In this document: positions 1-56,843 of the stretch, piece by piece
Layout: the number at the start of each line of letters is the position of its first letter
Position numbering within the stretch: position 1 is the first letter of the stretch
Notes under the pieces: generated by a model
Seen by the model: only the letters and a program-made list of their open reading frames with translations
Databases searched by the model: none
What the model was told of the DNA's origin: nothing
Source of the DNA: a virus
Length of the DNA: 64,000 bases
Direction: 5' to 3' (one strand)
Virus record (IMG/VR): IMGVR_UViG_3300025141_016680
Location: 1-64,000 of that record
Made by a program: the position numbers and the translations under genes

Positions 1-2189
1 GTGGCTGTGTAGAAGTTCTGGAAGTATGTGAGGGGTATAGCAGCCTCGAGACCGAATATCAACTCATCCGTTGGTAGTAGAAGGTAGGGAGCTTTCTGCT
101 GGAGCGTACCGGTGGCCAGATCCTCGAATCCAATCTCGGAATTACTGGATTGAAAATTAGGGTGGAGGTTATATTTGAAAGGCCCACCAAAGGGTCTGCT
201 AGTACGAGGATCAGCCATTTGAATCGAGGTACCGGACATCTTCTGTATGGGGAGCTGGGGATCTGCCTGCTCGCTATCTGATGGGTAGAATCCGTAGGTG
301 TGATCACCAAATTGTGTCACAGCGACGGTGTCCTTACCACCGACAAGACTTCCTGACTCGTACAATCTCTGGGCTCTGAATGGTTTGCATGCTGTGCCGC
401 CAGGCCAGTAATTATAGAGCTCTGCATTTCCGTTGGCGACTTGGCTGTCTGTTCCATTTCCATCAGCTGTACCTTTCATCACGTATCCAGCTGAGGAATC
501 TGGACAGTAAAAATGTCCGTGAAAGGATGCACCCACAACGGCTGGCTGAATCTCGAGACGCACAGAGCCTGTATATGTTCCAGACACCATAAAATGAGCG
601 GGTGTCAGAGAGGTCGAACCTGTGCCAGCGAGGGGATCAACAATGAACTTGTGCTTAAATGCGGGACCATTCTGGGGCTCAAACTGATAAGATGCAGATG
701 CAAATGTTGGGGCTACTGTGGCATCCTCCTCACCGCCCCAGAATCTCTGGGGCGGTGTGGGAGATACTCCATCTGACGACTGTGCCTCGTCAAACTGTGG
801 CTTGGCATTGAGCACACCTGTGTTGTAGAACGTCATCACACCACTGCAGATGAGAAATCTCTGGCTACCGGAGATCTCAAGCGCACTGTCACGCCCACTA
901 TTTCTGTGTATGATGTCATCACTGTTATTGCCGCTGTATTTTCCTCCGGCAACGGGCTGTCGCTGTTGTCTGTAGATGAAGAACACATAATCCTGCTGCT
1001 GGACCATGTTTTCTGGGCAGAGACCACGCTGGTACACAGGGACAGAATTGTCCTGTGCAGCGCCATCAGGTATGCCATCAGATCCTACCGCGTGGGATGG
1101 CTGCTGGCTTCCTGTTCCGGCAACCTGACGCTGGGCAAAGACAGGAAGCTCCACTACGATCTTCTCAAGAAGGAACGGAGAGGATATGTAATCAGACAAC
1201 TTAAGACAGTGACTTGATGTTCCGTGATATCTCGTGTCAAATGGTGCCATTCCTGTTACTGTTGGGTATCCAGCTCGTCGGAAGTTTTGGCTGGGTATGT
1301 CCAGCCTAAGTGGATCCTCAGAACCCTGACCCTGTGTCGCCTGGCAGGGTGTAAATTGGAACGGGAAGTGTGTGGCACCGGAGACCATCTTGTTATTAGA
1401 CTCACCAGTGTTTCCCTGCGCATGCCATGCCCAGTCGTAGGGAATGTTGCTGCCCATTGCAGGATCGATATTGCCCGTGTCCTCCCAGCGCTTCTTAGCC
1501 CAGTTGTAATAGGCGAATCCAGTCATATCCCTGTTATAAAATTCGCTGCTTGAAGTGAGAAAAAGATCGCCGGCGGCTGTTACTGTGCCACCGGTCTTAG
1601 AGTGCTTCGATATTCTCGTAGCGTAGTGAGCAGCGGGGGCGTCATGGGTGATGTCAAATCTTATCTGTGTCTTGTCCTTCAGTGGACTTGAGAAACCTAA
1701 CATTTGATCCTGGGAGGTTCCAGTCAGGTAAAATGGGCTTCGATCTAAGTAGATTCGACTTTCGTCAAAGGGTGTTAGAGTCTCAGGAGCTGCACCACCG
1801 GGCATGATGCTCTGGGAGATGAGATTGGGAATGAAGGCGTTGTGCGCTGATGAGGATCCAAATGCGACAATTGTGCCTGTCAGGCCTTGTATTAGCTGGC
1901 TGCCGACAGGTAGCATATTAGGATAGAGAATGTTTCCTGTTAGCTCAGTCGTTGTCCCGGTTGGCTGGTATGACGCTCCAAAAATCGGTGTGTTTGAGTC
2001 ATTGAATGTGGATGACATGAATCCCATTCTGTCATGATCACCTGTTCTTCTGATCACTGGGTATGATCCCGTTCGGTCATCCTGGATTCTGATCTCTATC
2101 CTTGGAGGTATTGTTAGAAATCTACTTTGGGTTCCACTTATGATCGTGCTATTCGCGCCACGAGGTCCCGGGTTATTAACATCACTCAT
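1..2189 (-). CDS. Large hypothetical virion protein, >729 aa, 3' end outside the window (absent from ORF track)
   Basis: Hand translation: ATG at 2189 overlaps the TGA of the upstream gene (ATGA). It reads MSDVNNPGPRGANSTIISGTQSRFLTIPP... with no stop down to base 1 (...PYLLLPTDELIFGLEAAIPLTYFQNFYTA). Rich in SG/TG motifs like its structural neighbours. Confidence 0.88.
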   Translation of the reverse strand, partial: MSDVNNPGPRGANSTIISGTQSRFLTIPPRIEIRIQDDRTGSYPVIRRTGDHDRMGFMSSTFNDSNTPIFGASYQPTGTTTELTGNILYPNMLPVGSQLIQGLTGTIVAFGSSSAHNAFIPNLISQSIMPGGAAPETLTPFDESRIYLDRSPFYLTGTSQDQMLGFSSPLKDKTQIRFDITHDAPAAHYATRISKHSKTGGTVTAAGDLFLTSSSEFYNRDMTGFAYYNWAKKRWEDTGNIDPAMGSNIPYDWAWHAQGNTGESNNKMVSGATHFPFQFTPCQATQGQGSEDPLRLDIPSQNFRRAGYPTVTGMAPFDTRYHGTSSHCLKLSDYISSPFLLEKIVVELPVFAQRQVAGTGSQQPSHAVGSDGIPDGAAQDNSVPVYQRGLCPENMVQQQDYVFFIYRQQRQPVAGGKYSGNNSDDIIHRNSGRDSALEISGSQRFLICSGVMTFYNTGVLNAKPQFDEAQSSDGVSPTPPQRFWGGEEDATVAPTFASASYQFEPQNGPAFKHKFIVDPLAGTGSTSLTPAHFMVSGTYTGSVRLEIQPAVVGASFHGHFYCPDSSAGYVMKGTADGNGTDSQVANGNAELYNYWPGGTACKPFRAQRLYESGSLVGGKDTVAVTQFGDHTYGFYPSDSEQADPQLPIQKMSGTSIQMADPRTSRPFGGPFKYNLHPNFQSSNSEIGFEDLATGTLQQKAPYLLLPTDELIFGLEAAIPLTYFQNFYTA

Positions 2190-3187
2190 CTCTTCAATCC
2201 TGCAAATGCTATTGAGTCAGTTCCCAGTATTGTTGAGCTGCCAGAATTTGCATCTAAATCAGACCCCTCTACCACTGCTGTCTCTCTAAAGATAAACCCA
2301 GATGTCGAAGACTTAAATCTCACACCAAGCGGACCTCGATCTCTAAAGCTGCCTGAGAGAGCCTGCATTATGACACTGGCGTCCGCTCCATTTCCAAGAG
2401 ATCCAGTGACCTCTTCTGGAGGATTCTGGAGTCCCATCCTTGGTGACTGGTCAAATGCATCGTCAAATGGCACCATCGCCACAGTGTGTGCAGATATGAT
2501 TCCCGGCTGAAACAGGTAGGCAAATGCTCCGTCAGAACCCGTCGGGGTGGGTATAGATCCAGTTGACATGCCCGGAATTCTTGGACCGTGTGAACCCTCT
2601 GATGACTCAAAAAATGCTGACATTGTCACAGGCTTGAATTCGATCTGCTGTGAAATTACTGTGGATTCCTTGAGTACATTCTGTGATGTCATCCCCTGGA
2701 GTGAAGCCCGGATCTCATGGGCAACAAAAGGTGCCTCTGAAGATGCATCAGAGAATGTTCCTCTTATGGCGAGAGGCTCAATTACACCGTCCATCTGACC
2801 TGGGTCGAGAAAGAAAGGTGTGCTTAGAACAACTGGATACTGCGCTGATGTGTCTCCTGCATTTATGTAATCCTTTGAATTGACAATGCCAATGATGTCA
2901 ATGTACGGTGACGTTGTTCCGTCCGGACCAGGATCCTCAAATAGCTTGGGCTGACCGTAAGTATGCTTTGGCATCTTGTGATCAAATCTTGTGCTTGCAT
3001 CACTGGGAAAATCACCGCCCATAATAATTGGACTAAGACTTTGTCTATAGTCACTAAAGCCCCTGACACTGATGCCCTGCCTAAACTGATTAACCTGATT
3101 TCCTAGTGAGCTGGAGGCAGGTGTGGCACGTGACACCACTCTGAAGATGTCATGCTTATCCCTATCATTAAACGGTACTATTGCCAC
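2186..3187 (-). CDS. Hypothetical virion-associated protein
   Basis: 333-aa ORF in the structural operon, translationally coupled to the next gene, with TGS/SGS motifs. No family recognised. Confidence 0.75.
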   Translation of the reverse strand: MAIVPFNDRDKHDIFRVVSRATPASSSLGNQVNQFRQGISVRGFSDYRQSLSPIIMGGDFPSDASTRFDHKMPKHTYGQPKLFEDPGPDGTTSPYIDIIGIVNSKDYINAGDTSAQYPVVLSTPFFLDPGQMDGVIEPLAIRGTFSDASSEAPFVAHEIRASLQGMTSQNVLKESTVISQQIEFKPVTMSAFFESSEGSHGPRIPGMSTGSIPTPTGSDGAFAYLFQPGIISAHTVAMVPFDDAFDQSPRMGLQNPPEEVTGSLGNGADASVIMQALSGSFRDRGPLGVRFKSSTSGFIFRETAVVEGSDLDANSGSSTILGTDSIAFAGLKR

Positions 3188-3201
3188 ACAAAACTCACAA
3201 T

Positions 3202-6200
3202 CTAGTTAGAATTCAGATCCCCTGATATCTCAATGATCCTCGCTCCCTTAACATCAATGTCTCTCTCAAACCCCTGAAGGTATATGTCATCAAATAAATA
3301 TCTAAACCTGTTTCTTTCAAGCACATGTGATTCGATCACAAAATTAACTCCAAGAAAATTTGTCTTTCTGGGAATTAGCTGCTCAATCAGAACAGAAAAA
3401 GATGAATCAAACCACTTAAAAAAGTCAAAGTATGATGCGATGTCAAGCTTCCTGGTCAGCCTGTTGAAATAAATGTCACTTAGATGCTCTAAATCTGGAT
3501 AGAAATCATCAAATAACAGATTTGGAGAACCGAGAGCTGAATCGAAAAAATCAAGAGATGAGAACATATTCATAATATCCTCGTCGAGAGATCTGATCGC
3601 AGAAAAATCTATACTAAATCTATTATCGTCATCAGGCTTCTCACTTGGTTGTATTTCATACATGGGAGCAGGAACCGCATATGCGCTCTCGTCCACCAGA
3701 TCTTGATCCTGAAAACTTCTTATTCTCACCTTTTGATCAGACTGTGCAATATCAAACTTTGGTGATAGAATACTATAGTTAAATGTCTCCGGGCGGACCA
3801 CACTCTTGCTTATCTCAAATCCACTTCCGCTAAAGAATAAATCATTCTGTGAGAAATCATGCAATACAATATTTCCCTTTGTATTTGATCCGGTGATGGC
3901 TTGATCTGTTGAAACATCAAGTCTTAACCGCTCGAATGCACCCGTTGGGGCTGTCACAAAGTTAAAGTTCGCCCTTGGATCATTAACACCTAAGGATTTA
4001 AAGTTTCTTGCGTGCTCTCTAAATTCTGCACCTGAAAGCCCTTTTGAATAAAACTTTATGTGGCCCATCTTTCCATTAAATTCTGTGTGGAGATTTTGTA
4101 TGTCATATTTTCCACTTTTGTCATCTGTTCCTGAGTTTAAGCAGTAGCTATTTGACGGGCTCGGTGTTATTGACTGTGATCCTATCACAAGAAATGGCCC
4201 AGATCTGTTGAATGAATTTGCTATTGCACCTGTTGCCTGGAAGAGATTACCAAGAGGAGATCCATTCGATGCCTCCTGGAATAGAGACGATGTGCTAAAG
4301 ATCTCAGCAATCCCCCCATACGACTGTCGTGCACATCTCAAAAAATATGAAGATGAGGACGGTAAGCCAATCTCATCACACCTATTTCTCCCAAATGAGA
4401 GATACCATTTATTGCCATCAAATATGTTAACACCCGTGAGAGACAGCTCAAGATGTGGCTCACTAGTTGTTTGAATTGAAGGCTTGACAAATAGCTTGAT
4501 CTCTGATCCGCTCGATGTGACACTGTTCTGTGCACCAGATAAAATTATCACATTTGCCAGAACCAGTCCTGAGCCTGCAGCTGGTGTTGATGTTCCTGTT
4601 GTGTGAATTCTGACTAAGCTTTGTGTTAAGGGATATCCGCCTCCCTGACTTGGGAACTTATAAATGCCCTCATAGGTAAAGGATCCCGATGTAAAGAATC
4701 CGTCACCGTGATCAGTAGAAATTCCGTGGATAAGCTTGCCCGTAGCAGACCTTCCATATCCTGAAGCCTTGTTTACCATTGTGCCCTTTGGCGCAGGGAA
4801 TCCTGATTCAAGTCTTGATGATGAAAGAAATTGTGATATTACATGCGGTGTTGCGAAGCTTCCAGAGCTAAGATAGCCGAAGCCTCTATGACTAGATGTA
4901 AGTGTCAGAGGGTTGTGCCCAAAGCTTCCGGAGAAATCTAGCATGGTTGAAACTTCAGATCTTTTTTGTCTCAAGTCCTGCAGAGTTCTTCTTGATGGTC
5001 CGCCATACTCTCTTATAGTAAATAAGCTATCAACATTTATGCCAGCTGCTGCCATTAAGCTTCGAATACTGTGTATAGTTCCCTTTGACTGTCTAGACTC
5101 CTTAAGATTAATTAGAATTCTCTTCCAGATCTGATTCTGAACATGTTGCAAAGAATTATCAGATAAGCTCTCTAAATTCTTAATATTTTCTCCACGAAGA
5201 AATTGTCCTAATGATGCATTTGAGTATAGAGAAGGTAAGCTAAAGCCATAGTATTTTGCAACAAACGGCAATAGTTTTTCAGCAACAGCTTCATCATCAT
5301 CATAGTCAACGTGTATGACCTTTGAAAAATGATCAATTGTTATTTTTAGCTCATCAAAAAACTTGGCCCATATTAACAAAAAAGCTGTTAATAGCTGTGA
5401 AGAGCCTATCTCTCCAGACCCAGGTATAGAATTTGCTGTAAATGGTTGCCCTAGCTGTCCATCGGGGCCGCCGGCGGGCTCTGATGCTCTCTCAAGCCCT
5501 TCATCGATCTGTCCTTCGATCAGATAGTGAACAGGGAGGAGTCTAGTAATAAGATTTGGATTCTCTCTATCATAATTGCTCGCAGTTGATAATAAAGTCG
5601 AATTAAGATTTGCTACCTTGGAAAATCCCGGAAATAAAATGGGTGATAAAGACTTGTCCTCAGCTGTCATTGGAACTGGCAGTGATCCAGTCAGTCGCAT
5701 GCTAGATGTAAAATTCGAAATCGGAGTGTGGAGAGAGTAACCCGAACTGTCAAGAACAACATCTCTTGCACCATATGAACCCGTATAAAATGGCTCATTA
5801 AATCTGAAATACAGCTTTAGTGGTTTTTGAGCAAAGATATTTCTAAGTCTTTCTGACCTCTGATTCTCTGGTCTTCGAACATTGTGAAAAAACCTAAACT
5901 CATCTAGAGCACCTGATAGTGTTTGTGTAGGTACAAAATAATCCTTCTCTGCCCCAGGTAATATGGACTTATCAACTGTTATTGAGGTGCCGGAGCCAAT
6001 CAGAAAATTCTGGTCACTTATAGATATCGGACCCATGAACCCAACGTTTGTAGAACTTGCAACAAGCGTCTGGCTGAGAAACAGCTTTATCTTTCCTACA
6101 CTGCCTCGCCTATCATATACAGCACAAATATGATTCCACCTTCCCTTATCAATTGATGCACTAGTTGCTAGCTTGACAGTACCTGAGGTCACAGCAAATA

Positions 6201-6924
6201 TCAAATCAACAGTGTTAGCTTGCGAAGCTGTGGTAGGATGAGATGTACCAGAAAGGTTAGATGCAGACAGTGCTAAGACAAAGCCAAAGCTAGAAGTGGT
6301 ACTCAAAGAGGTCGGATGAGGTGTGGAGCTTGAAACATGCTGACAGATCACTTGATTTCCACTTCCCGTCATAGCAGAAAAAAGATGTGTCTCTATTGAA
6401 AATGAACTATCTCCCACACTTAAAACAGACTCACCTGTATTCAATCTTGAAAAGCTTGGAAATCTAACTCCAGCTGCATCTACGACCTCCATGAAGGTTC
6501 CGTGGGTACCCTGGGGATCATGGCTAGATCCTGAAAACATTAGAAATCCGACATTCTTTGGAAATCTATCAAAGACATGTTTTTCAAATCCGGTTAGCGA
6601 ATCCTGGAATTGCTCTAGCTCTTTTCTAGTTCCATCAAAGGGAAATTCGTTTATTATTCGATCAAATGCAATATTGACCTTTGATTCAGCAGAATTAAAA
6701 AATGTGTGATTTTCAAATTTTGTGTAATCTAGAGGAATCTCTTGAGTCGACCTTATTCCTGCCCCTGGCGAATCGAATCTAAATGACCCAGTACTAAGAA
6801 TGTTTGTATCTCTTACTGAAGACAAAGATATCTCAGGTGAATTACTTGGCGTCGCAGTTCGTCGACTAACAGAGGGTTCAAAAAGCTTTGGACCCGGATT
6901 CAAACTTAGATTTCTCTTCGGCAT
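3202..6924 (-). CDS. Baseplate wedge-like protein with LamG/concanavalin A-like domains
   Basis: LamG-type motifs GRWNHICAVYDR and SGALDEFRFF, with a second copy around DGNKWYLSFGR and NGKMGHIKFY. P2 gpI/T4 gp7-like segment LPFVAKYYGF...KGTIHSIRSLM. Baseplate gene context. Confidence 0.6.
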   Translation of the reverse strand: MPKRNLSLNPGPKLFEPSVSRRTATPSNSPEISLSSVRDTNILSTGSFRFDSPGAGIRSTQEIPLDYTKFENHTFFNSAESKVNIAFDRIINEFPFDGTRKELEQFQDSLTGFEKHVFDRFPKNVGFLMFSGSSHDPQGTHGTFMEVVDAAGVRFPSFSRLNTGESVLSVGDSSFSIETHLFSAMTGSGNQVICQHVSSSTPHPTSLSTTSSFGFVLALSASNLSGTSHPTTASQANTVDLIFAVTSGTVKLATSASIDKGRWNHICAVYDRRGSVGKIKLFLSQTLVASSTNVGFMGPISISDQNFLIGSGTSITVDKSILPGAEKDYFVPTQTLSGALDEFRFFHNVRRPENQRSERLRNIFAQKPLKLYFRFNEPFYTGSYGARDVVLDSSGYSLHTPISNFTSSMRLTGSLPVPMTAEDKSLSPILFPGFSKVANLNSTLLSTASNYDRENPNLITRLLPVHYLIEGQIDEGLERASEPAGGPDGQLGQPFTANSIPGSGEIGSSQLLTAFLLIWAKFFDELKITIDHFSKVIHVDYDDDEAVAEKLLPFVAKYYGFSLPSLYSNASLGQFLRGENIKNLESLSDNSLQHVQNQIWKRILINLKESRQSKGTIHSIRSLMAAAGINVDSLFTIREYGGPSRRTLQDLRQKRSEVSTMLDFSGSFGHNPLTLTSSHRGFGYLSSGSFATPHVISQFLSSSRLESGFPAPKGTMVNKASGYGRSATGKLIHGISTDHGDGFFTSGSFTYEGIYKFPSQGGGYPLTQSLVRIHTTGTSTPAAGSGLVLANVIILSGAQNSVTSSGSEIKLFVKPSIQTTSEPHLELSLTGVNIFDGNKWYLSFGRNRCDEIGLPSSSSYFLRCARQSYGGIAEIFSTSSLFQEASNGSPLGNLFQATGAIANSFNRSGPFLVIGSQSITPSPSNSYCLNSGTDDKSGKYDIQNLHTEFNGKMGHIKFYSKGLSGAEFREHARNFKSLGVNDPRANFNFVTAPTGAFERLRLDVSTDQAITGSNTKGNIVLHDFSQNDLFFSGSGFEISKSVVRPETFNYSILSPKFDIAQSDQKVRIRSFQDQDLVDESAYAVPAPMYEIQPSEKPDDDNRFSIDFSAIRSLDEDIMNMFSSLDFFDSALGSPNLLFDDFYPDLEHLSDIYFNRLTRKLDIASYFDFFKWFDSSFSVLIEQLIPRKTNFLGVNFVIESHVLERNRFRYLFDDIYLQGFERDIDVKGARIIEISGDLNSN

Positions 6925-6929: not shown

Positions 6930-8459
6930 TTACTCGACCTTAAACTTACTCGCAACATCTGAGAATACGTGGTCAAAACCTAGATCTTTGATAAGGAATT
7001 CAAAAACATATGTCCGACCTGCTTCTAGACTGCTCATAAAGAATTCAAAGTACATTCCCTCTGAGTCTGTTGACAATAGCGTCCCATTTTTAGTTGTATC
7101 GAAGGGTATTATGGTCTCTTTTGATTCAAAATCTCTCACTCGATAATGCATTCTCGTGAAGATTTCACTTACTGCTTCTATTGGTGTTTTCCTTACAACA
7201 AGATCATTATCTATATTTTCAACAAAGACACGCAATTTTACCCTTTCATCGCTTCGATAGCTATTGCGAAGATTGGTCACATTAACGAATAGTCTACCAG
7301 GAGAATTAACAAACGCACTTCTTTGAACGGAGTTTACAACCAGCGTTCCGGTCAAAAATCCAACTGTCTTATCTTGTGAGCTCCAGATCTCAGTAAAGGA
7401 AGCAGATCCAGCATTTATAATCTGATTTCTTAGTGTTCCTGACTCAAATTCTGAAATTGCGAACGTTGCAGAATAAACACCGCTAACAAAATTATTTCCT
7501 ATCTTGTGCTGTGATCCTGAGTATGCTCGTGAAAAGAATGTTGCGCTTCCTGAGCTTCCTGATGTCAATGTGACAATGACACTATTCGATCCTGTTATCT
7601 GTGTTGCTTGTGCTCCAGATAGTAAATTAGCTATTCTTCCCCTGTGAAAATTATTGAGAAAAAGTGAACCTGTCAAATCAAAAAAGAAGCTCCTATGATG
7701 GTCCTGGATGGTGTCGTCATATTGAATTACCATCTTGGGCCTGATTCTTGTATTTGACGAGTGTCTTGACGCAAACCTCTTTACAAATCTTGTATAGTGA
7801 TCTGTCTCTTGAGTCCCAGAAAACGATATCCTAAATCCATGATCTGGTATGTCACCGGCCAGTGTTCCAGACACCAGTGTTGTTACATCTATCTCTAAAT
7901 TCTCTGTTCCTACATCAAAGGACTGTATTTTGAACAGATTTACTACGGCACTGCCCAGACTGCCGCTCTCAATAATATCGATATCGCTCGATCCAAGCTT
8001 GCCAGGCTTGTCAGCTCCTGATAAGAACCATGTTTGTGCCTTCCCTGATGATATGGATGATGTAAGATAATTACAGGCATCTATATCTTCAAATGTGGCT
8101 ACATCTCGGCCAATTCCCTCATCAAATGACCGAGAAAGAGGAAATACAATAATCTTAAAATTTGAGGGTGTTGTCTGGCCCCCATAAACGTCATGCAATT
8201 TGAGCATTGCGTTAAATGAAGGATGTGATATATCAAGATCTGAGCCTGTTAACTGCTTAAGCGGGCTGAGATCAAACTTGATTAATATTCTTGAGATTTC
8301 AGTCGGTGCTGCTGTTCCAGAAATTATTGACTCATCATATAGCTTAAAGAGATCTAAGGTTCCCGCACGACCAACATTCGCATCTGTGGCGCGAAAAGCA
8401 CCATTAATAATTTTATTTGTGATGTATGTATCACTGCTTGCTGAGAGTATTCTATACAT
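6930..8459 (-). CDS. Virion structural protein with N-terminal DNRLRE-like domain
   Basis: Pattern DTYI...DANVG...SRILIKFDLS...RPKMVIQY resembles DNRLRE/CBM96-like domains. Located within the baseplate module. Confidence 0.55.
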   Translation of the reverse strand: MYRILSASSDTYITNKIINGAFRATDANVGRAGTLDLFKLYDESIISGTAAPTEISRILIKFDLSPLKQLTGSDLDISHPSFNAMLKLHDVYGGQTTPSNFKIIVFPLSRSFDEGIGRDVATFEDIDACNYLTSSISSGKAQTWFLSGADKPGKLGSSDIDIIESGSLGSAVVNLFKIQSFDVGTENLEIDVTTLVSGTLAGDIPDHGFRISFSGTQETDHYTRFVKRFASRHSSNTRIRPKMVIQYDDTIQDHHRSFFFDLTGSLFLNNFHRGRIANLLSGAQATQITGSNSVIVTLTSGSSGSATFFSRAYSGSQHKIGNNFVSGVYSATFAISEFESGTLRNQIINAGSASFTEIWSSQDKTVGFLTGTLVVNSVQRSAFVNSPGRLFVNVTNLRNSYRSDERVKLRVFVENIDNDLVVRKTPIEAVSEIFTRMHYRVRDFESKETIIPFDTTKNGTLLSTDSEGMYFEFFMSSLEAGRTYVFEFLIKDLGFDHVFSDVASKFKVE

Positions 8460-8466: not shown

Positions 8467-10320
8467 CTAGACTGCTTTTCCAATTATATCATCACTGGGG
8501 AATCTCATCTCAAAAATTCCCCCAGCTGGCGGAACAATAATTCCTCTTGAAGTGGCTTCTGCAATATTTATCGTTTGTGGACTATATGATCGACCACTAA
8601 CAGTTCCTGCTAAACTGAATATCTGGATTCCCACCTGTGAAATAACACCGTCAGTATTCAAAATAAGATTTACTAAATCTGATATCACTATGGGTTGATC
8701 GATTTGAAAATTTGTCACATCCATGTATTTCTTAAGTGAAGTATTAACTCTTTGGACGGTTGACTCTTTGCTAGATGATGGGTCAACTACGATGCTGTAC
8801 CTAATGCCGATATTTATTACACTTGCATCGATGATATCAATTGCATCTGAGATCAACCTGAATTCATTTAGATAGGTTCTTAAGTTTTTCTTTAGTGTGT
8901 CAGGTGAGACCACTAGCTGTCCACTAGTATTTCTACTTATGATTGCCATAGTTGTCGCAAGCGGATTATTTCTATTTTGAATAATTCCCAGTCTGAAGAC
9001 ACGTCCAAAATTAGAGGGCATTGTATACACACGAGCGATTAGATCTTGCTTTGTTACAATTCTTGACTGTGAGTTTCTAAAGGCAAGAGCAGTCGACCTT
9101 AGCTCGTTCAGAGTTAATTCTGACTCTCCTCCAGCAGCTGGTGCTGTATTGTTCACAACAAGCGATGCTCTAACAGCAGAAACAACAGAAGAGGGTGTTC
9201 CACTGCTAAATTTATTTAAAAGATTAGAGATTTGAGTAATTGAACCAATCCCTACATTGTGAGAGATGCCACCGCCTGCCCTGTATCTAACAGTTATTGT
9301 TGTACTTCTAGGAGAAATTCCCATTGTTCTTGCGCCAAGAAGAGAGTTAGGATCAAGTGTAAATCGACTTAGAGACTTCTTTTGACCAAAAAGTGGTAAT
9401 GACACCTCACTGGGATCTGGAATAATATCATCATCAAGAGACGCACCATCGCCAGATCCAAATCTTATTGTTGTCAATCCAGTCGATCTATCTGTCGTAG
9501 AAATAAATCTATACGGTGCGGGTAGTATCTCAAGATTATCAGAAACAAGGTCATTATCAGCGCTGTCATTTCGAACCCTGGTAAATACTGTGTCCTGTGT
9601 TAGGGCTTCCACCTCATAGTATTCATTTCCCTCTGTGTCTATAACAGATACAATGTCTGAAACATTCTCTGATGATAGAGTAATTGTTCTGAAGGGTTTT
9701 AAATCGGCCCCGATTGAAAAGTTTTCCTCAATTGTCTTTCCTGATGTGCAAAGACCTGTCATTTTTAACTTAAATTTTGATGGTTGATTATTATTATTTG
9801 TTTCATCAACTATCACACTAGCCAGCAGGCTACCTGCGGCGTTTCTTTTGTCAAAATCAAGATTTTCTGTGAGCTCAAACGTTATTCCTGTGTTTGAAGA
9901 CAGAAGAGTTCCTGCAGAAATAATCGGAAGGTGTGATGAAATTGGTACCCTAGTATTGTTTAGCGTCTCTGCATCCACGACAATAGAAAACTCTACATCA
10001 ACAGTGGCCGGACTTGCACCCATTATCTTGACACCTGCTGCTCTAACAAGCCTTTCTACATTTTTATCTTCAACAGCTGTCTCAATATCGAGCTCATTAA
10101 ATTGATGATCTAGATAGAATGACATGACATCTCCAACGTAAGCTGCCATCTCTAAAAATAGACCACCCATGCTGGCCTCAGAGAAATCCTGAATCTCTTC
10201 GGGAAAATACGTCCGTGCGTACGTTAGAAGTTCTGCACGAAAAGCTTCAAAATCCTTATTTAGAAAAGATCTTGGTCTCTGCTGCTTGAGTTTCTTCTTT
10301 ATATTTCTTGAATTTGCCAT
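8467..10320 (-). CDS. Baseplate wedge subunit (T4 gp6 / P2 J-like)
   Basis: FLNKDFEAFRAELLTYA...DFSEASMGGLFLEMAAYVGDVMSFYLD, IRFGSG, VRYRAGGG, AAGGESELT...QSRIVTKQD. Confidence 0.88.
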   Translation of the reverse strand: MANSRNIKKKLKQQRPRSFLNKDFEAFRAELLTYARTYFPEEIQDFSEASMGGLFLEMAAYVGDVMSFYLDHQFNELDIETAVEDKNVERLVRAAGVKIMGASPATVDVEFSIVVDAETLNNTRVPISSHLPIISAGTLLSSNTGITFELTENLDFDKRNAAGSLLASVIVDETNNNNQPSKFKLKMTGLCTSGKTIEENFSIGADLKPFRTITLSSENVSDIVSVIDTEGNEYYEVEALTQDTVFTRVRNDSADNDLVSDNLEILPAPYRFISTTDRSTGLTTIRFGSGDGASLDDDIIPDPSEVSLPLFGQKKSLSRFTLDPNSLLGARTMGISPRSTTITVRYRAGGGISHNVGIGSITQISNLLNKFSSGTPSSVVSAVRASLVVNNTAPAAGGESELTLNELRSTALAFRNSQSRIVTKQDLIARVYTMPSNFGRVFRLGIIQNRNNPLATTMAIISRNTSGQLVVSPDTLKKNLRTYLNEFRLISDAIDIIDASVINIGIRYSIVVDPSSSKESTVQRVNTSLKKYMDVTNFQIDQPIVISDLVNLILNTDGVISQVGIQIFSLAGTVSGRSYSPQTINIAEATSRGIIVPPAGGIFEMRFPSDDIIGKAV

Positions 10321-10325: not shown

Positions 10326-10823
10326 CTATCCAATAGTGAAGATAGTTAGACCCAATTTCTTACCAGCTATCCTAAGCTTAGGTACATTGTATGTAATCTC
10401 TATCTCAATTTTTGCTATTCCCTCATCCGGTAAAAGATCAAGCTCAACACTTGATCCTGCAATTCGATAAAATTTTGAATCAAAGGTTTCTAGCTCTACA
10501 AAGGGCATAAATTTACCAGCTGTCTGATTAATTCTCATCATTGCCTCTGCATCAAAAGAATCTTTAGCAACAAGCTCTGTTGTGAGCTCTCTAAGATTTG
10601 CACCAAAATCATATCTTCCCAGCCTCTCACCATTATTTGTCATGATTAAATTTCTAAGATTATCATGAATTGCATCGGGAAGATTGAAGTGCATCTTAAA
10701 TAGACCGGATCGACCTGTGCCGAGCTCCAGAGGAGTCTTAATTCCAATCGGAACAGGGCTTCGAGTTCTAGTAAATTTTCTCGCTGTGGTCTTGTTGCCG
10801 ACACTCTTAAAGCTTATAGCCAT
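10326..10823 (-). CDS. Baseplate gp25/GPW-like protein
   Basis: IHDNLRNLIMTNNGERLGRYDFGANL is the gp25-family signature. Directly upstream of the wedge gene. Confidence 0.88.
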   Translation of the reverse strand: MAISFKSVGNKTTARKFTRTRSPVPIGIKTPLELGTGRSGLFKMHFNLPDAIHDNLRNLIMTNNGERLGRYDFGANLRELTTELVAKDSFDAEAMMRINQTAGKFMPFVELETFDSKFYRIAGSSVELDLLPDEGIAKIEIEITYNVPKLRIAGKKLGLTIFTIG

Positions 10824-20119: not shown

Positions 20120-20130
20120 TGATATGATTC

Positions 20131-25275: not shown

Positions 25276-25276
25276 T

Positions 25277-35362: not shown

Positions 35363-35366
35363 TTTA

Positions 35367-36335: not shown

Positions 36336-36408
36336 TTTTTACCCATACTATTTTTAATCTTACCATCCTCCTATGAAGTCTTTTAATTTATTTCTAAATT
36401 TGAATGAT

Positions 36409-38315: not shown

Positions 38316-38356
38316 CTAAGCTTCCTCTTGATAATTCTAAGATAAAAAAATAAGCT

Positions 38357-41584: not shown

Positions 41585-41590
41585 TTTAAA

Positions 41591-42908: not shown

Positions 42909-43873
42909 TGCTGTTTTCCAAATAGCTCTTCAAAGACCTTAATATTATAGTAAGTCTTATCGTCAAAGCTATATGTTGATAAGTCTATATTTCTTAAAAT
43001 TTCATTAACAGAGTCTCCAGGAGAAAACTGAGGAACGAAATCAAGCTGATCTTTTATCTTGTTATTTGTTACTTTATAGTTTCTACATTCTGGAATATTT
43101 TTAATCTCTATGTCTACAGTGATCCCATTATTTAATAACTCATCTCTAATTTCATCAGCTAAGCGGCCCATTGTGTAATTGTCATATGATACATTAAATA
43201 CACCTGTTATTTCTGGGCTTGCTTCAATTGCCCTGATGTATGCTGTGGCGATGTCACGTACATCTGTTAAAGGTCGCCATACACTAGGGTTATTTACAAC
43301 TATCTTTCCCTCTGTCAGCGCAAACTTTGTCATTGTGTTTACAACAAGATCATATCTCATTCTCTTGGAATACCCACCTACCGTTCCCTTTCTAAGAGAT
43401 ATTGGTCTAAATGTTTCATCTTCAAAGCTCATAACAGCACTCTCACCCAACATTTTTGAAATACCGTATGGAAATTTTGGAGAAACATGAGAGCTCTCAT
43501 TCATCAATTTATCAGCTGTATATCCATAAATACTGCATGAACTTGCATACACAAATCTTTGCACGCCTGCTTCCTTAGAAATAAATGCAAGATACGTTGG
43601 TGAGGATGCATTCTCAACAAAGTTCATAGATGGGTTAAAGTTTGCCATTGGATCATTTGACACACCAGCCATAAAGATGACAACGTCAAATCCAGAAACA
43701 TCGTCTGGAGTTAGTGACCTAATATCAGCATTAATTATATTTGTTTCATCTGGAAGACTATTTCCAAACCACAGTAAATCTACAACAGTAACATCATACT
43801 GTCTTTCAATTAGTTTTGGTACTAAGACTGAGCCGATATATCCTGCGCCGCCTGCAATTAGAATTTTTTTCAT
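42905..43873 (-). CDS. NAD-dependent epimerase/dehydratase
   Basis: AGGAGYIGS, VSNDP, YASSCSIYG, YGISK, RMRYDLVVNTM. Confidence 0.88.
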   Translation of the reverse strand: MKKILIAGGAGYIGSVLVPKLIERQYDVTVVDLLWFGNSLPDETNIINADIRSLTPDDVSGFDVVIFMAGVSNDPMANFNPSMNFVENASSPTYLAFISKEAGVQRFVYASSCSIYGYTADKLMNESSHVSPKFPYGISKMLGESAVMSFEDETFRPISLRKGTVGGYSKRMRYDLVVNTMTKFALTEGKIVVNNPSVWRPLTDVRDIATAYIRAIEASPEITGVFNVSYDNYTMGRLADEIRDELLNNGITVDIEIKNIPECRNYKVTNNKIKDQLDFVPQFSPGDSVNEILRNIDLSTYSFDDKTYYNIKVFEELFGKQQ

Positions 43874-44451
43874 TATTTATCCTTAAAATTAAATTTTGGA
43901 TTATTTCTATATTCAGAAAAAGACTGTGCTGCCGAATCCTTTTCTGATAATATTAAGCTGCTTTTATCAATGCCCCAGTCAATATTAAGCTCTGGATCGA
44001 GTGGGTTTATTCCGGATTCTCCATCTGAGTTATAAACTGCTGTGCACTTGTAATGTAGCACAGTGTTATCTTCAAGAGAAATAATTCCATGAGCATAGCC
44101 CGGTGGAACCCATAGTTCTTTTTTATTTTCTGCCGTTAGCATAAATGATTCATAAACTCCATACGTTGGTGATCCTTTTCTTACATCGACAATGACATCC
44201 ATGATTGCACCGCTTGCCACCTTGACAAATTTTCCCATTGGGCCGTCCCACTGATAGTGTAGGCCTCTTATTACATTCGCCCTTGATATAGAAAAATTAT
44301 CTTGGACAAATATTTCATTAAATCCCGCTTCTTTAAACGTATTCTCATTATATGATTCGTAAAAACACCCTCTGTGATCATGAAAAACCCTTGGTGTAAA
44401 TACAAAAACATCATTAAAATTTTTACTTTTTTCCTTTGCAACTTTCTTCAT
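43873..44451 (-). CDS. rmlC: dTDP-4-dehydrorhamnose 3,5-epimerase family
   Basis: DHRGCFYESY, QDNFS, RGLHYQ, DVRKGSPTYG, VPPGYAHG. Confidence 0.92.
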   Translation of the reverse strand: MKKVAKEKSKNFNDVFVFTPRVFHDHRGCFYESYNENTFKEAGFNEIFVQDNFSISRANVIRGLHYQWDGPMGKFVKVASGAIMDVIVDVRKGSPTYGVYESFMLTAENKKELWVPPGYAHGIISLEDNTVLHYKCTAVYNSDGESGINPLDPELNIDWGIDKSSLILSEKDSAAQSFSEYRNNPKFNFKDK

Positions 44452-44921
44452 TTAGAAATCTCCATCTTCATCTCAATTCTCTTAATTTTTTCTTTGCCCC
44501 TGAACACTGGGTCGGTTTTTTTGTTTGTTCTTTTAAATCCAACTTTTTCGTAGAGAGAAATTGCTCTAACATTAAATTCTAAAACGTATAAGATAAACGT
44601 CTTAAACCCAAAAGATTCTAACATAAAGTTCATAAACTTAGGGTATGCCAGCTTTGCTATTCCCATTCCCCGGTATGTTCTATGTATGTCACATCCTATA
44701 AACACACTGCTTTCATCTTCATTCCATGAAGATGTTCTAAAATACCCTACATCATTGTTATTATGAGTCAAAATATAAAATTTTGGCTTGCTTTTCCTGA
44801 ACCATTCGCGGCATTGATTAATTGTAAATCTAGTATTATCATCAAGAAAATCGGCACATTCATTTCGTATGGCAATAAAAAATTCAAGATCATCTGCACA
44901 CATTTCTCTAAAGCGTATCAT
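44448..44921 (-). CDS. GNAT N-acetyltransferase (PseH-like)
   Basis: YRGMGIAK and VLEFNVRAISLYEKVGF. Confidence 0.85.
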   Translation of the reverse strand: MIRFREMCADDLEFFIAIRNECADFLDDNTRFTINQCREWFRKSKPKFYILTHNNNDVGYFRTSSWNEDESSVFIGCDIHRTYRGMGIAKLAYPKFMNFMLESFGFKTFILYVLEFNVRAISLYEKVGFKRTNKKTDPVFRGKEKIKRIEMKMEISK

Positions 44922-45641
44922 CTACTGATCTTCTTTCTTGGCGATAAATCCTCTAGCTCTTACAAGGTTTATTGTTGAAATCTGCCTCATCTCAGCCCAA
45001 TCTCTATCATTAACTGACACAGAGTTTATGTTGTATCTATAACATACAGTGTCTATATACTTTCTCTTATTTGAAACGCTTAATATCGGCAACATTAAGG
45101 CTTGATCATATCCACGCTTGAACCATTTTAACTCTTCGTCCTTAAAATTTTTATCAGATATTTTTTTTAACAGTGCACACCTGAACGTTCTTAAATGAGA
45201 ACTGCACCATGGCCAAAAATACGGATCTACATTGTCTGGCATATCATTTGATATATTGCTTCCGTTTATATCCCATTCATGAGCAGTCCAAACAACATCG
45301 CTACCATTACTATACTCATTATTAACAATTGACACAGCATCGTTATTGCACAAAAAATCATCTCCATCAATTGTTGCGATAATGACATTATCAGCAACAT
45401 CCTGAAACAGTCTAGATGTTTCAACAATATTTCTTAATGCAAACTTTTTAACTGAATTTTTTCTACACGAAAACCTGCTGTCGTTTGTGCAAATTTCAAT
45501 CATTTTTTTCCAGGTATCATCTTCTGACATGTCATCAACCATAATACATGTCCATCGATCATCAGACTGAGACTGTAATGATGAAGCAAGCTTGTCAAGA
45601 TTTCTTTCTGCATTAAAGCATGGAACTACAAATATTATCAC
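44922..45641 (-). CDS. Glycosyltransferase, GT2-like
   Basis: VVPCFNAE, MVDDMSEDDT, TIDGDD. Confidence 0.88.
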   Translation of the reverse strand: MIIFVVPCFNAERNLDKLASSLQSQSDDRWTCIMVDDMSEDDTWKKMIEICTNDSRFSCRKNSVKKFALRNIVETSRLFQDVADNVIIATIDGDDFLCNNDAVSIVNNEYSNGSDVVWTAHEWDINGSNISNDMPDNVDPYFWPWCSSHLRTFRCALLKKISDKNFKDEELKWFKRGYDQALMLPILSVSNKRKYIDTVCYRYNINSVSVNDRDWAEMRQISTINLVRARGFIAKKEDQ

Positions 45642-47563
45642 TTTTTATCAATCCAGTTTCTTATAATCTCTGGATTACCCTGTGACAATTTCATGTGCGG
45701 GGTCTTTTTTGAAAAATCTACCTTTGTATGAAAAATCCATCCGCCCATCTCATTTGCAAGCTTTTCTGCGAAATTATCCAATTCCTCATCTGTTGTCTCA
45801 GACCAGGGCTTATTAAAAAACATATTATTTTCAGCAGTGTCAGCCTGGCTTATATTGTATAGACTTTGCCAGTGCTTCGACCAGTAATTTTTATATGTTC
45901 TTATTTTTCGCTTAATATCGAACCATGAGTAATGATGAACGCTAGGAAGATTATTTGTCATCTCCTGAAACCACATCTGATAATTGCTCAATGCTTCCTT
46001 GTCAGAAAATGCTTGATTTCTCAGTGCATCACTTTCTCCGGTGTAAAAGTTTGCAAATTCAACTCTTTCAAACGTGTCACTTCGAATATAATCACAACCA
46101 TCAGTACCAGGTAGAGAGTACATTTCTCCACTCTCATCGAACTTTCTAAGCTCTTTTGGAATGCCATGTGTGATGTGCGGTTTATTTCGACTAAATCTCC
46201 ACTTCCACGGTGTGACATCTATTCTTATCTTTTCATGCCCACCCCAGTATTCAATTACGGGTAGTGCAAGAAGGTCTATATTTTTTGGAAGAATTTTTGA
46301 TAAATTCGCAATCTTGTCATAATCGTCCTGATGAATAATCTCATCTGAATCCTGCTGCCAGCAAAATTCACCCGTGCAGAGAACTCTTGCAAATGCTTTT
46401 TGTAATCCATCAAATACTGCAAATCTTGGATGATTCCAGTCCCTTACATTCTGGTGCACAAGTAGCTTTTCGTGCTTCTCTGTCAGCTTCTGAAGCTGCT
46501 CCCAGGTCCCGTCCTTGGAACCACCATCAACAACAACTACCTGGTCACAGAAGGCAAGCATGGACTTTATGCTCTCCACAAAGGGATAATTCTGCTCAAT
46601 ACAATTCAATGTGGTAGTATATCCACTGATTGTTGGCTGATATTCGATTATCTTCTTTATTTCATTCCAAAATCTTTTTCCTGCTGACTTGAGATAACCC
46701 TCAACAGCGTTTAAGTCAGCTGTATTAAACCACTCCTCATTAATGTGCTGTACATTTTCATTTGTAATGATGTCACAGCCTAATAGCTTTGCCTCTATGA
46801 TAAGCCGTGGACATGTATCCTTTCCCTTCGGTAGAAAGACTAGCGCTTTTGCCTGTGAAAGCCTTTCAAGCATATCCTTGTATGGAAGGTCCCAGAGAAC
46901 CTCGTAGTCAAAATTCTTTTTCTTGCAAAGTGCCTCACCATCCTGTGTTCCCTTTATCCAGGATGTTGAACCTACAACAAGATACTTCTCTCGATTGACA
47001 TCCTGCGCTTTTATTCGCAAGTAATCAATCTCACTAAAGAAATCAGAGTTGAATACAGATGATAGAACGGTATTTTTAATCTGCTCAAGAAATGGAAATG
47101 CCTGATGATACTTTTGCATCTGCTGCTCTGACATCCACCAAAGAGACTTTGCTCCATAGTAAAATGCTGAAACCATCTTTCCATACATTTGATTCTGACA
47201 GTCGCACGGCATGTTCTCTGCCTGCTCATGCTTTTCTGTTGATCTATACTTACAATATTTGTAATCAAACTCAATAATTGAATAATTTAAGTTTGCAACA
47301 ATTGTTGGAATGAGATTCCAGTCCATTGATGAATAGTTTCCAAAAATCCAGTGCTTTCTTATTCCCTGTGACAGAAGTTCTGCTGTCACCTTGCTTGAGT
47401 GTAATTTAAAAACTTTATATGTCGATGAATCAATTATTGCATCAGTTGTTAATTCTGCTCCTCCAAGATGATCAGACGAGAACATATCTCCAACAAAGAC
47501 AATGTCACAGTCATCTGGTACACTTGGAGGAGGCTCTATATTAAATGGACTACGATTGAACAT
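45638..47563 (-). CDS. Bifunctional glycosyltransferase (GT4-like plus GT2-like fusion)
   Basis: N-half GGAELT...IKG...DTCPRLIIEAKLLG. C-half VVVVDGGSKDGTWE...WQQDSDE. Confidence 0.8.
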   Translation of the reverse strand: MFNRSPFNIEPPPSVPDDCDIVFVGDMFSSDHLGGAELTTDAIIDSSTYKVFKLHSSKVTAELLSQGIRKHWIFGNYSSMDWNLIPTIVANLNYSIIEFDYKYCKYRSTEKHEQAENMPCDCQNQMYGKMVSAFYYGAKSLWWMSEQQMQKYHQAFPFLEQIKNTVLSSVFNSDFFSEIDYLRIKAQDVNREKYLVVGSTSWIKGTQDGEALCKKKNFDYEVLWDLPYKDMLERLSQAKALVFLPKGKDTCPRLIIEAKLLGCDIITNENVQHINEEWFNTADLNAVEGYLKSAGKRFWNEIKKIIEYQPTISGYTTTLNCIEQNYPFVESIKSMLAFCDQVVVVDGGSKDGTWEQLQKLTEKHEKLLVHQNVRDWNHPRFAVFDGLQKAFARVLCTGEFCWQQDSDEIIHQDDYDKIANLSKILPKNIDLLALPVIEYWGGHEKIRIDVTPWKWRFSRNKPHITHGIPKELRKFDESGEMYSLPGTDGCDYIRSDTFERVEFANFYTGESDALRNQAFSDKEALSNYQMWFQEMTNNLPSVHHYSWFDIKRKIRTYKNYWSKHWQSLYNISQADTAENNMFFNKPWSETTDEELDNFAEKLANEMGGWIFHTKVDFSKKTPHMKLSQGNPEIIRNWIDKK

Positions 47564-56247: not shown

Positions 56248-56496
56248 TCAAACACCAAATGTCTTGCTTATTGCGAGCACATTTACCTCACCGCTCCATG
56301 CATTGCTGGAGGAGACTATAATTGTGCTGGCGCCGACACTGTGAATAAAAAAGTTTGGAGCATCTTGTGTGCTCCCAGTGATAATCGGTGAAATTGTGAC
56401 AACAGGGGGTTTATCAAATGCTGTCGTCAGCGTGAAGGTCCCTACCGTAGAATTAGAAAAGCTTGCAATTCCGTGCTCTAGACTGATTTTTGCCAT
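56248..56496 (-). CDS. Small beta-rich fibre-associated protein
   Basis: FTLTTAFDKPPVVTIS resembles H-lectin/gp53-like fibre tip domains. Directly upstream of the fibre gene. Confidence 0.55.
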   Translation of the reverse strand: MAKISLEHGIASFSNSTVGTFTLTTAFDKPPVVTISPIITGSTQDAPNFFIHSVGASTIIVSSSNAWSGEVNVLAISKTFGV

Positions 56497-56504
56497 ATTC
56501 TTCC

Positions 56505-56843
56505 CTATTCCGTAATTAGTATCACATGAAAGTGAACAGCACCGGTAAATTCCTGACTTGCTTCAAATGTTACAAACGTCTTCGTTACAGTGCTAATATA
56601 AATATTGACGTCGGCACCATCATTTGAATCTGTATCAACTGCGATTGCAGTGACAAAGGGAGCAGAGTCATATATTTCAGTAAATGTATGTGTGGCAGAG
56701 CTGGCAGCTGAAAAAGTTAGTGATCCTGCTTCAAGGATTGTTTCTTTCTCTGACACAAAGGAATTTATAGGCTTTCTCCGAATATACGGATAAGTTTTTC
56801 TAAACCTATTGAGGTCTCTCTTTTTAAATGTGGTTCCGGCCAT
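56505..56843 (-). CDS. Small beta-rich fibre-associated protein, probable paralogue of its neighbour
   Basis: GSLTF...HTFTEIYDSAPFVTAIA...FTGAVHFHVI. Confidence 0.55.
   Translation of the reverse strand: MAGTTFKKRDLNRFRKTYPYIRRKPINSFVSEKETILEAGSLTFSAASSATHTFTEIYDSAPFVTAIAVDTDSNDGADVNIYISTVTKTFVTFEASQEFTGAVHFHVILITE

Follow-up and report, generated by a model that had tools for sequence, protein, structure and literature searches.

A selected Ser/Thr-Gly/Ala-Ser/Thr motif, candidate site of O-glycosylation, in the outer tail proteins of a marine jumbo myovirus with a conserved glycosyltransferase pair

The locus described here raises the question of why several outer tail proteins of a virus are enriched in one short tripeptide, and whether that tripeptide is connected with the ∼30 kb of sugar genes that lie among them. 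It is contained in a 64,000-nucleotide stretch (hereafter the window) that forms the initial 64 kb of a 98-kb virus contig, IMG/VR record IMGVR_UViG_3300025141_016680, in which all long open reading frames (ORFs) are on the minus strand. The DNA comes from an uncultured jumbo myovirus of the sea and carries hallmarks of such phages, specifically Baseplate J/wedge, gp25-like, late-sigma-like, PIN-PhoH, tubulin-like, GroEL-like, and PrkA genes and a tmRNA. Its nearest cultured or other relatives, recognized through Baseplate J (∼32% identity), are Microcystis phage Mel-JY01, the Flavobacterium “immuto” phages, and the 484-kb uncultured LR756508, and one of its tail proteins, of 509 aa (6930-8459), has >2,266 homologs, chiefly from ocean metagenomes and on contigs of up to 285 kb. 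A first-pass annotation, made from the letters of the window, had proposed that [ST]G[ST] tripeptides in the virion proteins are acceptor sites of a phage-encoded O-glycosylation system. The motif excess was confirmed, and the glycosylation interpretation overall was partly supported.

Observed [ST]G[ST] counts were compared with those expected from composition-preserving shuffles of each protein, the check suggested with that annotation. The excess was 4-7x in precisely the five virion proteins that had been singled out: four non-repetitive proteins downstream of Baseplate J, with 46 sites against 8.8 expected, and a 2432-aa fibre-like protein (48939-56237). The remaining 49 proteins of the window held 15 sites in total against 16.2 expected; Baseplate J (8467-10320) and a 437-aa protein (47622-48935) were not enriched, and the radical SAM enzyme (39265-40794) used originally as the comparison had one site against 0.4 expected. 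The excess persisted in shuffles inside 12-residue windows (z 3 to 12), and z-scores ranged from 3 to 13 over global, 30-residue-window, and 12-residue-window shuffles. The reordered patterns G[ST][ST] and [ST][ST]G showed no enrichment in the motif-rich proteins, so the bias depends on residue order, and the motif codons are varied, which rules out a DNA-level word as its cause and places the signal at the protein level. A hydrophobic residue stands at position -1 in 25 of the 46 motifs and at +3 in 21 of them (background 0.30), and the last motif position prefers Ser. In the 509-aa family [ST]A[ST] is about equally enriched (4.8x), which makes [ST]-[G/A]-[ST] the unit, broader than the tripeptide as first defined. 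The copies in the 2432-aa fibre are likewise in excess, but are not independent, since this protein consists of 22 tandem repeats of 62-74 aa with two copies each (...[ST]G[ST]-V-S-D-F-x-L-[ST]G[ST]-I-K-N...), and its 69 copies reduce to 26 sequence contexts.

In a survey of 80 related loci, the bias was confined to proteins distal to Baseplate J. Upstream of Baseplate J the motif occurred at 1.06x expectation (219 ORFs), and in the 80 Baseplate J orthologs at 0.59x (52 vs. 87.6 expected); the ratio was 5.4x in 75 orthologs of the 509-aa protein (582 vs. 108), 4.7x in orthologs of the adjacent LamG-containing protein (615 vs. 131), and 2.6x farther downstream. The motif is not generic to phage fibres, as no bias was seen in 28 large T4 proteins, including gp7, gp10, gp11, gp12, wac, and gp34-37 (for example, 5 vs. 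3.3 in gp34 and 4 vs. 4.2 in gp37), or in the tail and fibre proteins of P2 (fibre H, 1 vs. 1.6). The folds named by the first-pass annotation were recovered, with LamG at residues 235-352 of the 3202-6924 protein (PF13385, 31.4 bits against a gathering cutoff of 27.6) and DNRLRE at residues 43-245 of the 509-aa protein (NF033679, 35.0 bits against a cutoff of 34). To judge from alignment, the motif does not appear to be dictated by the DNRLRE fold: 15 bacterial DNRLRE domains contained 8 sites against 7.8 expected (ratio 1.03), most of the phage sites are without a counterpart in them, site 214 among these, sites 47 and 165 fall within phage-specific insertions, and site 197 corresponds to V-Q-[A/G]-W, in which the small residue is common to both but the hydroxyls are not; only site 71 looks fold-intrinsic. 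The recurrence of the motif in unrelated folds was borne out by at least four non-homologous proteins of the window and by further non-homologous tail proteins in Mel-JY01, immuto, and RM378. A dense glycan coat over the whole particle, also proposed, is not indicated, because the bias is found only distally to Baseplate J, motif counts in the RM378 sheath, portal, and head proteins match expectation, and at least six giant fibre-like proteins of a 305-kb relative are not enriched.

Site-level behavior was followed in the 120 best homologs of the 509-aa protein. These carried a mean of 8.4 sites against 1.6 expected, with a minimum of 4, which agrees with the earlier claim that the tripeptide is selected: it is a conserved feature and not an effect of composition. 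Conservation reaches 96-98% at sites 214, 263, and 300, where Ser and Thr interchange almost freely around a fixed Gly; at other sites the central residue is Gly, Ala, or Ser. Motif Ser/Thr positions had a median hydroxyl conservation of 0.98, compared with 0.75 at other Ser/Thr positions (Mann-Whitney p = 0.0017), and Ser-Thr exchange was three times commoner at motif positions than at other Ser/Thr positions; the constraint thus appears to act on the hydroxyl and not on the exact side chain. An AlphaFold2 (AF2) model of the protein (predicted local distance difference test score, pLDDT, 69.6) consists of beta-sandwich domains and places motif sites in strand interiors (165, 263, 314, and 370), at strand ends (214 and 300), in a helix (197), and also in coil, a mixture that is not as would be expected from a single turn type.

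Between the baseplate genes and the sugar island lie two adjacent genes for glycosyltransferases (GTs) of the GT4 type, at 16007-17257 and 14822-15991, whose C-terminal domains both score above the gathering threshold for GT4/Glycos_transf_1 (Table 1). The former is the best-conserved gene of the block, with 56-72% identity in relatives, and its EX7E motif (E287-G-F-G-L...E295) is invariant in an alignment of 20 sequences; in the latter, the EX7E-type stretch R273-G-E275-G-F-G-L-P280 is invariant in an alignment of 22 sequences. The pair is syntenic with the baseplate block in all 32 relatives that have enough flanking sequence, in the kept order GT4 (16007 type), GT4 (14822 type), small membrane protein, sigma-like protein, two further genes, gp25-like protein, Baseplate J, 509-aa protein, and LamG protein, and a PD-(D/E)XK nuclease gene lies directly upstream of the pair. 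This conserved pair (14822-17257) is a better candidate for the key transferase than the “Maf-like” island protein to which the first-pass annotation had pointed, which has a single-domain sialyltransferase fold, occurs in only some relatives, and resembles Maf only at the superfamily level. A profile scan of genome contigs with the GT4, which reaches close relatives only, returned only phage contigs mis-binned into metagenome-assembled genomes (MAGs) and gave no cellular context. Separately, the extreme end of a 1.38-Mb Lysobacterales MAG contig (JADKCY010000003.1, 1364112-1378626) holds a GT4 gene of the clade type (54% identity); the assembly is chimeric, or else a phage has been joined to a host chromosome. 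Apart from the 112-aa protein encoded just downstream of the pair, which is kept in 39 related loci, there is no membrane-type protein between the island and the baseplate genes.

Among 50,697 phage records, orthologs of the 16007-17257 gene were found only in immuto, Mel-JY01, LR756508, and RM378, and the first two of these and RM378 also bear motif-rich tail proteins. In Mel-JY01 such proteins have 6 vs. 0.7, 11 vs. 2.0, 9 vs. 1.0, and 5 vs. 0.8 sites; in immuto, 8 vs. 2.4, 5 vs. 1.1, 6 vs. 1.1, and 28 vs. 10; and in RM378 there are ∼23 vs. 5.9 across six neighboring genes. The biased proteins of all three phages lie after Baseplate J or in one tail cluster. Both GT4 genes are adjacent in RM378. 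In immuto and Mel-JY01, the GT4 ortholog is accompanied by a second GT1-like gene and by GT2 genes. Distant homologs of the LamG protein include the Mel-JY01 protein with 11 vs. 2.0 sites, that of immuto with 8 vs. 2.4, and one in LR756508 with 5 vs. 1.4. A tblastn search of cultured phages with the 509-aa protein gave nothing at E 1e-3, and homology to the Mel-JY01, immuto, and LR756508 proteins surfaced only in small local searches. A literature search on RM378 together with glycosyltransferase found no relevant paper. As a separate observation, the Mel-JY01 ortholog (83441-84752) is split into two ORFs, one of 198 aa for the N-terminal half of the enzyme and one of 313 aa for the C-terminal half, which could reflect a true split GT-B enzyme, a frameshift, or a sequencing error.

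Within the clade itself, a near-complete 305,838-bp member, mis-binned as a Methylococcaceae MAG, carries the GT4 pair and a sugar island of ∼13 kb. Its orthologs of the 509-aa protein (6 vs. 1.3) and the LamG protein (8 vs. 3.0) are enriched, and mild enrichment occurs in the major capsid protein (6 vs. 1.8), a sheath paralog (7 vs. 1.9), and a gp13-like protein (4 vs. 0.6). Two sheath-like proteins, of 1507 and 1068 aa, are encoded on this contig. ORFs of equal length (1080 and 1618 aa) stand at its two ends, so the assembly probably closes on itself and the true genome is probably ∼280 kb. The co-occurrence of motif and phage glycosyltransferases across lineages, which the first-pass annotation had suggested as a test, holds for immuto, Mel-JY01, and RM378, but barely for LR756508 and not for the giant fibres of the 305-kb relative.

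The glycan island proved real, with sugar-nucleotide and GT genes identified by Pfam and encoding soluble proteins. It occupies ∼30 kb between the fibre and baseplate genes (18150-47563) and comprises a UDP-sugar dehydrogenase, two NeuB, two CMP-sugar cytidylyltransferases, short-chain dehydrogenases/reductases, methyltransferases, two DegT aminotransferases, three GDP-mannose-dehydratase-type enzymes, epimerases, DUF2334, a carbamoyltransferase, a B12-radical SAM enzyme, an RmlC-like epimerase, a GNAT acetyltransferase, and approximately nine GT1/GT2 genes. The radical SAM, O-carbamoyltransferase, and PhyH-like enzymes suggest heavily modified (C-methylated, carbamoylated, or hydroxylated) sugars. 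Most of these genes are absent from the related loci, which hold different contents. No flippase, polymerase, or membrane-spanning protein was found in the island, the sole exception being the Rossmann-type hydrophobic N-terminus of the 18150-18998 protein, and this soluble, export-free, and polymerase-free layout would suit a soluble acceptor. Genes are packed in a compact, co-directional array, with only 723 non-coding bases in total within gaps of at least 35 bp from 14862 to 56237. The island closes beside the fibre genes with a 641-aa GT2 protein, which has no match among solved structures and whose ortholog in the 305-kb relative (E 1.8e-229) adjoins the giant fibre gene; it was considered as a second universal partner of the motif and rejected, as it is restricted to the marine clade, with no match in immuto, Mel-JY01, RM378, or LR756508. 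The UDP-glucose/GDP-mannose dehydrogenase homolog at 18150-19288 has 282 aa and retains the N-terminal and central domains without the C-terminal one, and the longest gap of the island (290 bp) lies just upstream of it; this may be a truncated or decaying gene.

The “Maf-like” protein of the first-pass annotation is a 245-aa island protein (25277-26014) whose likeness to Maf stood at the level of the PF01973 superfamily and failed at that of a full Maf, since it consists of a single domain the size of CstII and not of the ∼600-aa multi-domain Maf architecture. Its own PF01973 match is sub-threshold (13.9 bits against a cutoff of 34.6, E 0.046), although four of 12 homologs are annotated with PF01973, and its nearest Atlas clusters are viral PF01973 families (score 0.95, up to 85% PF01973). 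A profile of the family matched Campylobacter Cst-I/Cst-II best in the PDB (E 4.5e-4). In a Foldseek search with its AF2 model (pLDDT 84.9), ST8SiaIII, archaeal MptE, and CstII ranked ahead of Maf (5mu5, rank 15), and it aligned to only part of the 632-aa 5mu5 chain (template-modeling score normalized to the target, 0.22). It is thus neither a full Maf nor a member of the conserved core, and is plausibly a nonulosonate transferase; the NeuB and CMP-transferase genes directly upstream suggest, by gene context, a CMP-nonulosonate donor.

Taken together, these observations led us to the tentative proposal, to which we give not quite an even chance, that the GT4 pair starts O-glycosylation of the outer tail proteins at hydrophobic-[ST]-[G/A]-[ST] and that the island elongates the glycan. 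In this scheme, tail, GT4, and island genes would all be expressed from one compact array late in infection. The acceptor would be hydrophobic-[Ser/Thr]-[Gly/Ala]-[Ser/Thr], mostly Ser-ended, on peripheral baseplate and fibre proteins in the cytoplasm; the initial sugar, or the initial two, would be added by the retaining-type pair (16007-17257 and 14822-15991); and the island would supply unusual nucleotide sugars, including CMP-nonulosonates and modified GDP- and dTDP-deoxy/amino sugars, and lengthen the glycan in a strain-specific manner, with the sialyltransferase-fold protein taking part in the extension. Glycosylation of virion proteins, the motif as acceptor, and the enzyme that acts first are all inferred here from sequence. 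The proposal draws on the order-specific excess at the protein level, its onset at Baseplate J, and the constraint on the hydroxyl; on a motif that is not dictated by fold and is missing from T4 and P2, together with GT4 synteny in 32 of 32 relatives and an intact EX7E-type motif; and on a soluble island without export machinery and the precedent of TibC/TibA.

Several results weigh against this proposal. Nearly all of the excess in the 509-aa family sits at fixed, inherited columns (10 for G and 6 for A), and lineage-specific sites outside them reach only 1.17x expectation, although a sequon selected for the number of sites should turn over more; a structural role accounts for this pattern equally well. 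The equal enrichment of [ST]A[ST] and the partly fold-intrinsic site 71, where bacterial DNRLRE domains often have [ST]-A-[ST], point the same way, and tandem repetition inflates the count in the 2432-aa fibre. The association of motif and GT4 is graded and follows protein families, in lineages that are not phylogenetically independent: LR756508 carries the GT4 ortholog, yet its 509-aa homolog has 0 sites and its LamG homolog only the 5 noted above, and in the 305-kb relative neither the fibre-like proteins of 1,130-2,178 aa nor the protein at the giant-fibre position (7 vs. 9.3) is enriched. Additionally, the GT4 pair of RM378 lies beside DNA-metabolism genes, and matches of the GT4 proteins to known enzymes in the PDB and NCBIfam (BshA, MshA, GlgA, and B736L) are weak and generic, so that they give no reading of the acceptor type.

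The fixed columns, the equal enrichment of [ST]A[ST], site 71, and the link to protein families are what would be predicted if the motif were a structural signature inherited with these tail families, for example a beta-strand or bulge with the small residue directed toward the core and two hydroxyls toward solvent or a neighboring subunit, while the GT4 pair and island acted elsewhere, on other virion sites, host envelope glycans, or another soluble target. The interchange of G, A, and S at several sites is as a need for a small residue predicts, a number of sites fall within predicted beta-strands, site 197 has its central small residue in common with bacterial DNRLRE domains, and the giant-fibre motif is embedded in a longer structural repeat. 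Such a signature would, however, have to have arisen in proteins of different folds within one phage and again in other tail proteins of Mel-JY01, immuto, and RM378, while leaving the T4 and P2 tail and fibre proteins and the bacterial DNRLRE domains without bias; the heterogeneous secondary-structure context and the constraint on a hydroxyl with free Ser/Thr exchange also speak against it. We regard it as the main rival, a serious possibility although one well short of even. It is unlikely that the motif is instead a linear element for phosphorylation or another modification, for an assembly chaperone, or for a hydroxyl ladder contacting host polysaccharide. The evidence for a selected, hydroxyl-specific motif is silent on what recognizes it, and PrkA is encoded nearby in the window; however, PrkA was not found in immuto, Mel-JY01, RM378, or LR756508, the first three of which are biased, and it was rejected as the modifying enzyme, leaving the kinase alternative raised by the first-pass annotation disfavored. 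No other kinase or dedicated chaperone was seen to co-occur with the motif, and the GT4 pair is the only gene set seen to track it across lineages. An artefact of composition, low complexity, or chance has a practically negligible probability: Ser, Thr, and Gly are indeed abundant in the proteins, and the giant fibre has a repeat structure, but local composition was rejected as the cause by the 30- and 12-residue-window shuffles, permuted orders are not enriched, Baseplate J is of similar composition and lacks the excess, and the bias was reproduced in 120 homologs and 80 loci.

The features of the window are collected in Table 1. The assignment of Baseplate J is supported by PF04865 (21.9 bits against a cutoff of 21.1), by phrog_219 (E 1.8e-17), by its place in a baseplate operon, and by 31-32% identity over 97-99% of its length to the annotated baseplate wedge proteins of immuto and Mel-JY01. 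Among the non-repetitive proteins, the 509-aa protein is the most motif-dense. The protein at 3-2189, whose C-terminus is cut by the contig end, has no Pfam or PHROG match and has homologs in 35 of the 80 related loci. Family scans of the 2432-aa fibre (Pfam and PHROG) gave low-complexity matches only; its residues ∼50-160 and ∼1535-1640 are near-duplicates, resembling a fusion of two fibre units, and its final ∼390 residues are non-repetitive. The sigma-like gene is syntenic in relatives and has a homolog in LR756508. A T4-type late promoter, TATAAATA, matched the window twice against 3.7 expected, which is uninformative on timing. Beyond the tail and sugar genes, the GroEL-like and PrkA genes are both kept in the 305-kb relative.

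Table 1. Features of the 64,000-nucleotide window (observed vs. expected counts refer to [ST]G[ST]).
Feature	Coordinates	Strand	Basis or remarks
Distal tail/fibre-like protein, 729 aa in window, motif-rich	3..2189	-	13 vs. 2.2, z 7.5
Tail protein, 333 aa, motif-rich	2186..3187	-	5 vs. 1.1, z 3.9; homologs in 24 related loci
Peripheral baseplate/fibre protein with LamG (concanavalin-like) domain, 1240 aa, motif-rich, clade core gene	3202..6924	-	16 vs. 3.8, z 6.5
509-aa protein, N-terminal DNRLRE then beta-sandwich domains, clade core gene	6930..8459	-	12 vs. 1.6, z 8.3
Baseplate J/wedge protein (T4 gp6-like), marks onset of bias	8467..10320	-	1 vs. 1.4
Small baseplate wedge subunit (gp25-like), not enriched	10326..10823	-	Weak match to phrog_43; kept in 79/80 loci
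Late sigma-factor-like protein, between GT pair and baseplate genes	13785..14543	-	Weak match to phrog_234
112-aa protein with one strong hydrophobic (membrane-spanning) segment	14524-14862	-	Just downstream of GT4 pair, before sigma-like gene
Core GT4 glycosyltransferase, second and more divergent member of pair	14822..15991	-	PF00534/PF13692, 36.4 bits vs. cutoff 26.4
Core GT4 glycosyltransferase, first member of pair	16007..17257	-	PF00534/PF13692, 43.7 bits vs. cutoff 26.4
PD-(D/E)XK nuclease, conserved neighbor of GT pair	17303..18127	-	PF12705; present wherever flank reaches (30/80 loci)
Variable sugar-nucleotide and glycosyltransferase island, soluble proteins	18150..47563	-	Pfam
PhyH-like dioxygenase	20131-20970	-	Island
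245-aa protein, sialyltransferase-type fold (PF01973 superfamily)	25277..26014	-	Directly after two NeuB and two CMP-transferase genes
O-carbamoyltransferase	33731-35362	-	Island
B12-binding radical SAM enzyme	39265-40794	-	Island
641-aa protein, central GT2 domain and 330-aa N-terminus without family, closes island beside fibre genes	45638..47563	-	PF00535/PF13704
Fibre-like protein, 2432 aa	48939..56237	-	69 vs. 18, z 12.5
PhoH-like ATPase fused to N-terminal PIN nuclease domain	56871-58160	-	PF02562 and PF13638; phrog_2765
406-aa protein, possible PhuZ-like phage tubulin	58900-60120	-	Sub-threshold tubulin/FtsZ GTPase PF00091, 28.8 bits vs. cutoff 33
tmRNA	60182-60549	-	Tag peptide ANNNNHFESVRLAA; ARAGORN and Rfam RF00023 concur (107 bits vs. 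gathering score 47)
GroEL-like protein	61754-63121	-	phrog_5725
PrkA-type protein, full, 645 aa on contig	63125-64000, running on to ∼65062 of contig	-	Follows GroEL-like gene

A broader and more doubtful form of the proposal, to which we would give distinctly less than an even chance, is that an abundant, cosmopolitan marine jumbo clade and its cultured relatives (on Flavobacterium, Microcystis, and Rhodothermus) use an undescribed O-glycosylation sequon, hydrophobic-[S/T]-[G/A]-[S/T], primed by the GT4 pair on the outermost baseplate and fibre proteins and elaborated by a hypervariable island of up to ∼30 kb that builds strain-specific glycans, including nonulosonic acids, as a tail “glycan serotype.” Were the motif a true acceptor, phage particles would have their first O-glycosylation signal defined by sequence, and the enzymes would make up a phage-encoded system for protein glycosylation far larger than any other, in a clade with thousands of ocean-metagenome members. 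Tail glycosylation could then be predicted from sequence, and the finding would suggest that variable phage glycans tune host recognition, or evasion of host and grazer defenses, in the ocean; glycoengineering might gain a compact tag together with its soluble enzymes. If the motif is purely structural, it would still be a useful marker of one myovirus baseplate lineage.

Several known systems offer points of comparison. The sialyltransferase-type fold of the 245-aa protein is shared with Maf (PF01973; PDB 5mu5) and with the GT42 enzymes Cst-I and Cst-II (PDB 2p2v and 1ro7). It has neither of the flagellin-binding terminal domains of the 632-aa Maf chain, and its gene lies in the variable island. 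CstII-type enzymes extend glycans and do not modify protein. In the accessory Sec system, GtfA/GtfB is the O-GlcNAc transferase of serine-rich repeat adhesins, with GtfB as the non-catalytic partner, and conserved priming is followed by variable extension. The phage locus is alike in having two adjacent GT-B/GT4-like genes beside a candidate substrate gene, but TIGR02918 scores only 15.5 bits where 574.6 are required, the catalytic motif is intact in both phage GTs, and the candidate substrates are folded beta-sandwich proteins with dispersed sites rather than long Ser-rich tracts. Chlorovirus PBCV-1 likewise encodes a soluble glycosylation machinery independent of host export, and its B736L (PDB 3oy2) is the second-best solved-structure match of the 16007-17257 protein (E 3.9e-5), a match that is weak and generic to GT4. 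The PBCV-1 system is that of a eukaryotic virus and carries out N-linked glycosylation of the major capsid protein.

In the bacterial autotransporter heptosyltransferases (BAHT; TibC/TibA and AAH/AIDA-I), numerous Ser residues of a beta-rich adhesin are hyperglycosylated in the cytoplasm by a soluble enzyme, and TibC modifies Ser313 and Ser322 of TibA, in ...NSGG... and ...TSAA... (PMC4358343), such that the mapped acceptor Ser precedes Gly or Ala, as in the phage motif. BAHT enzymes are iron-finger dodecamers of a distinct family, with ADP-heptose as donor and Ser as the sole acceptor residue, whereas the phage enzymes are GT4, the phage motif has both Ser and Thr, and a second hydroxyl two residues on belongs to the motif. 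No BAHT model was matched in an NCBIfam scan of both GT4s and three island proteins without family; the other island GTs were scanned with Pfam only. Among tailed phages with their own GTs, mycobacteriophages are reported to encode enzymes that extensively glycosylate their own structural proteins (Freeman et al., 2023, as cited in PMC12582341). The candidate targets here are instead peripheral baseplate and fibre proteins with a short internal motif, the enzyme set spans ∼30 kb with nonulosonate and deoxy/amino-sugar pathways rather than a couple of GTs, and the host is not an actinobacterium. By analogy, mycobacteriophage virion glycosylation would be the nearest biological precedent for the locus described here, and TibC/AAH the nearest mechanistic one.

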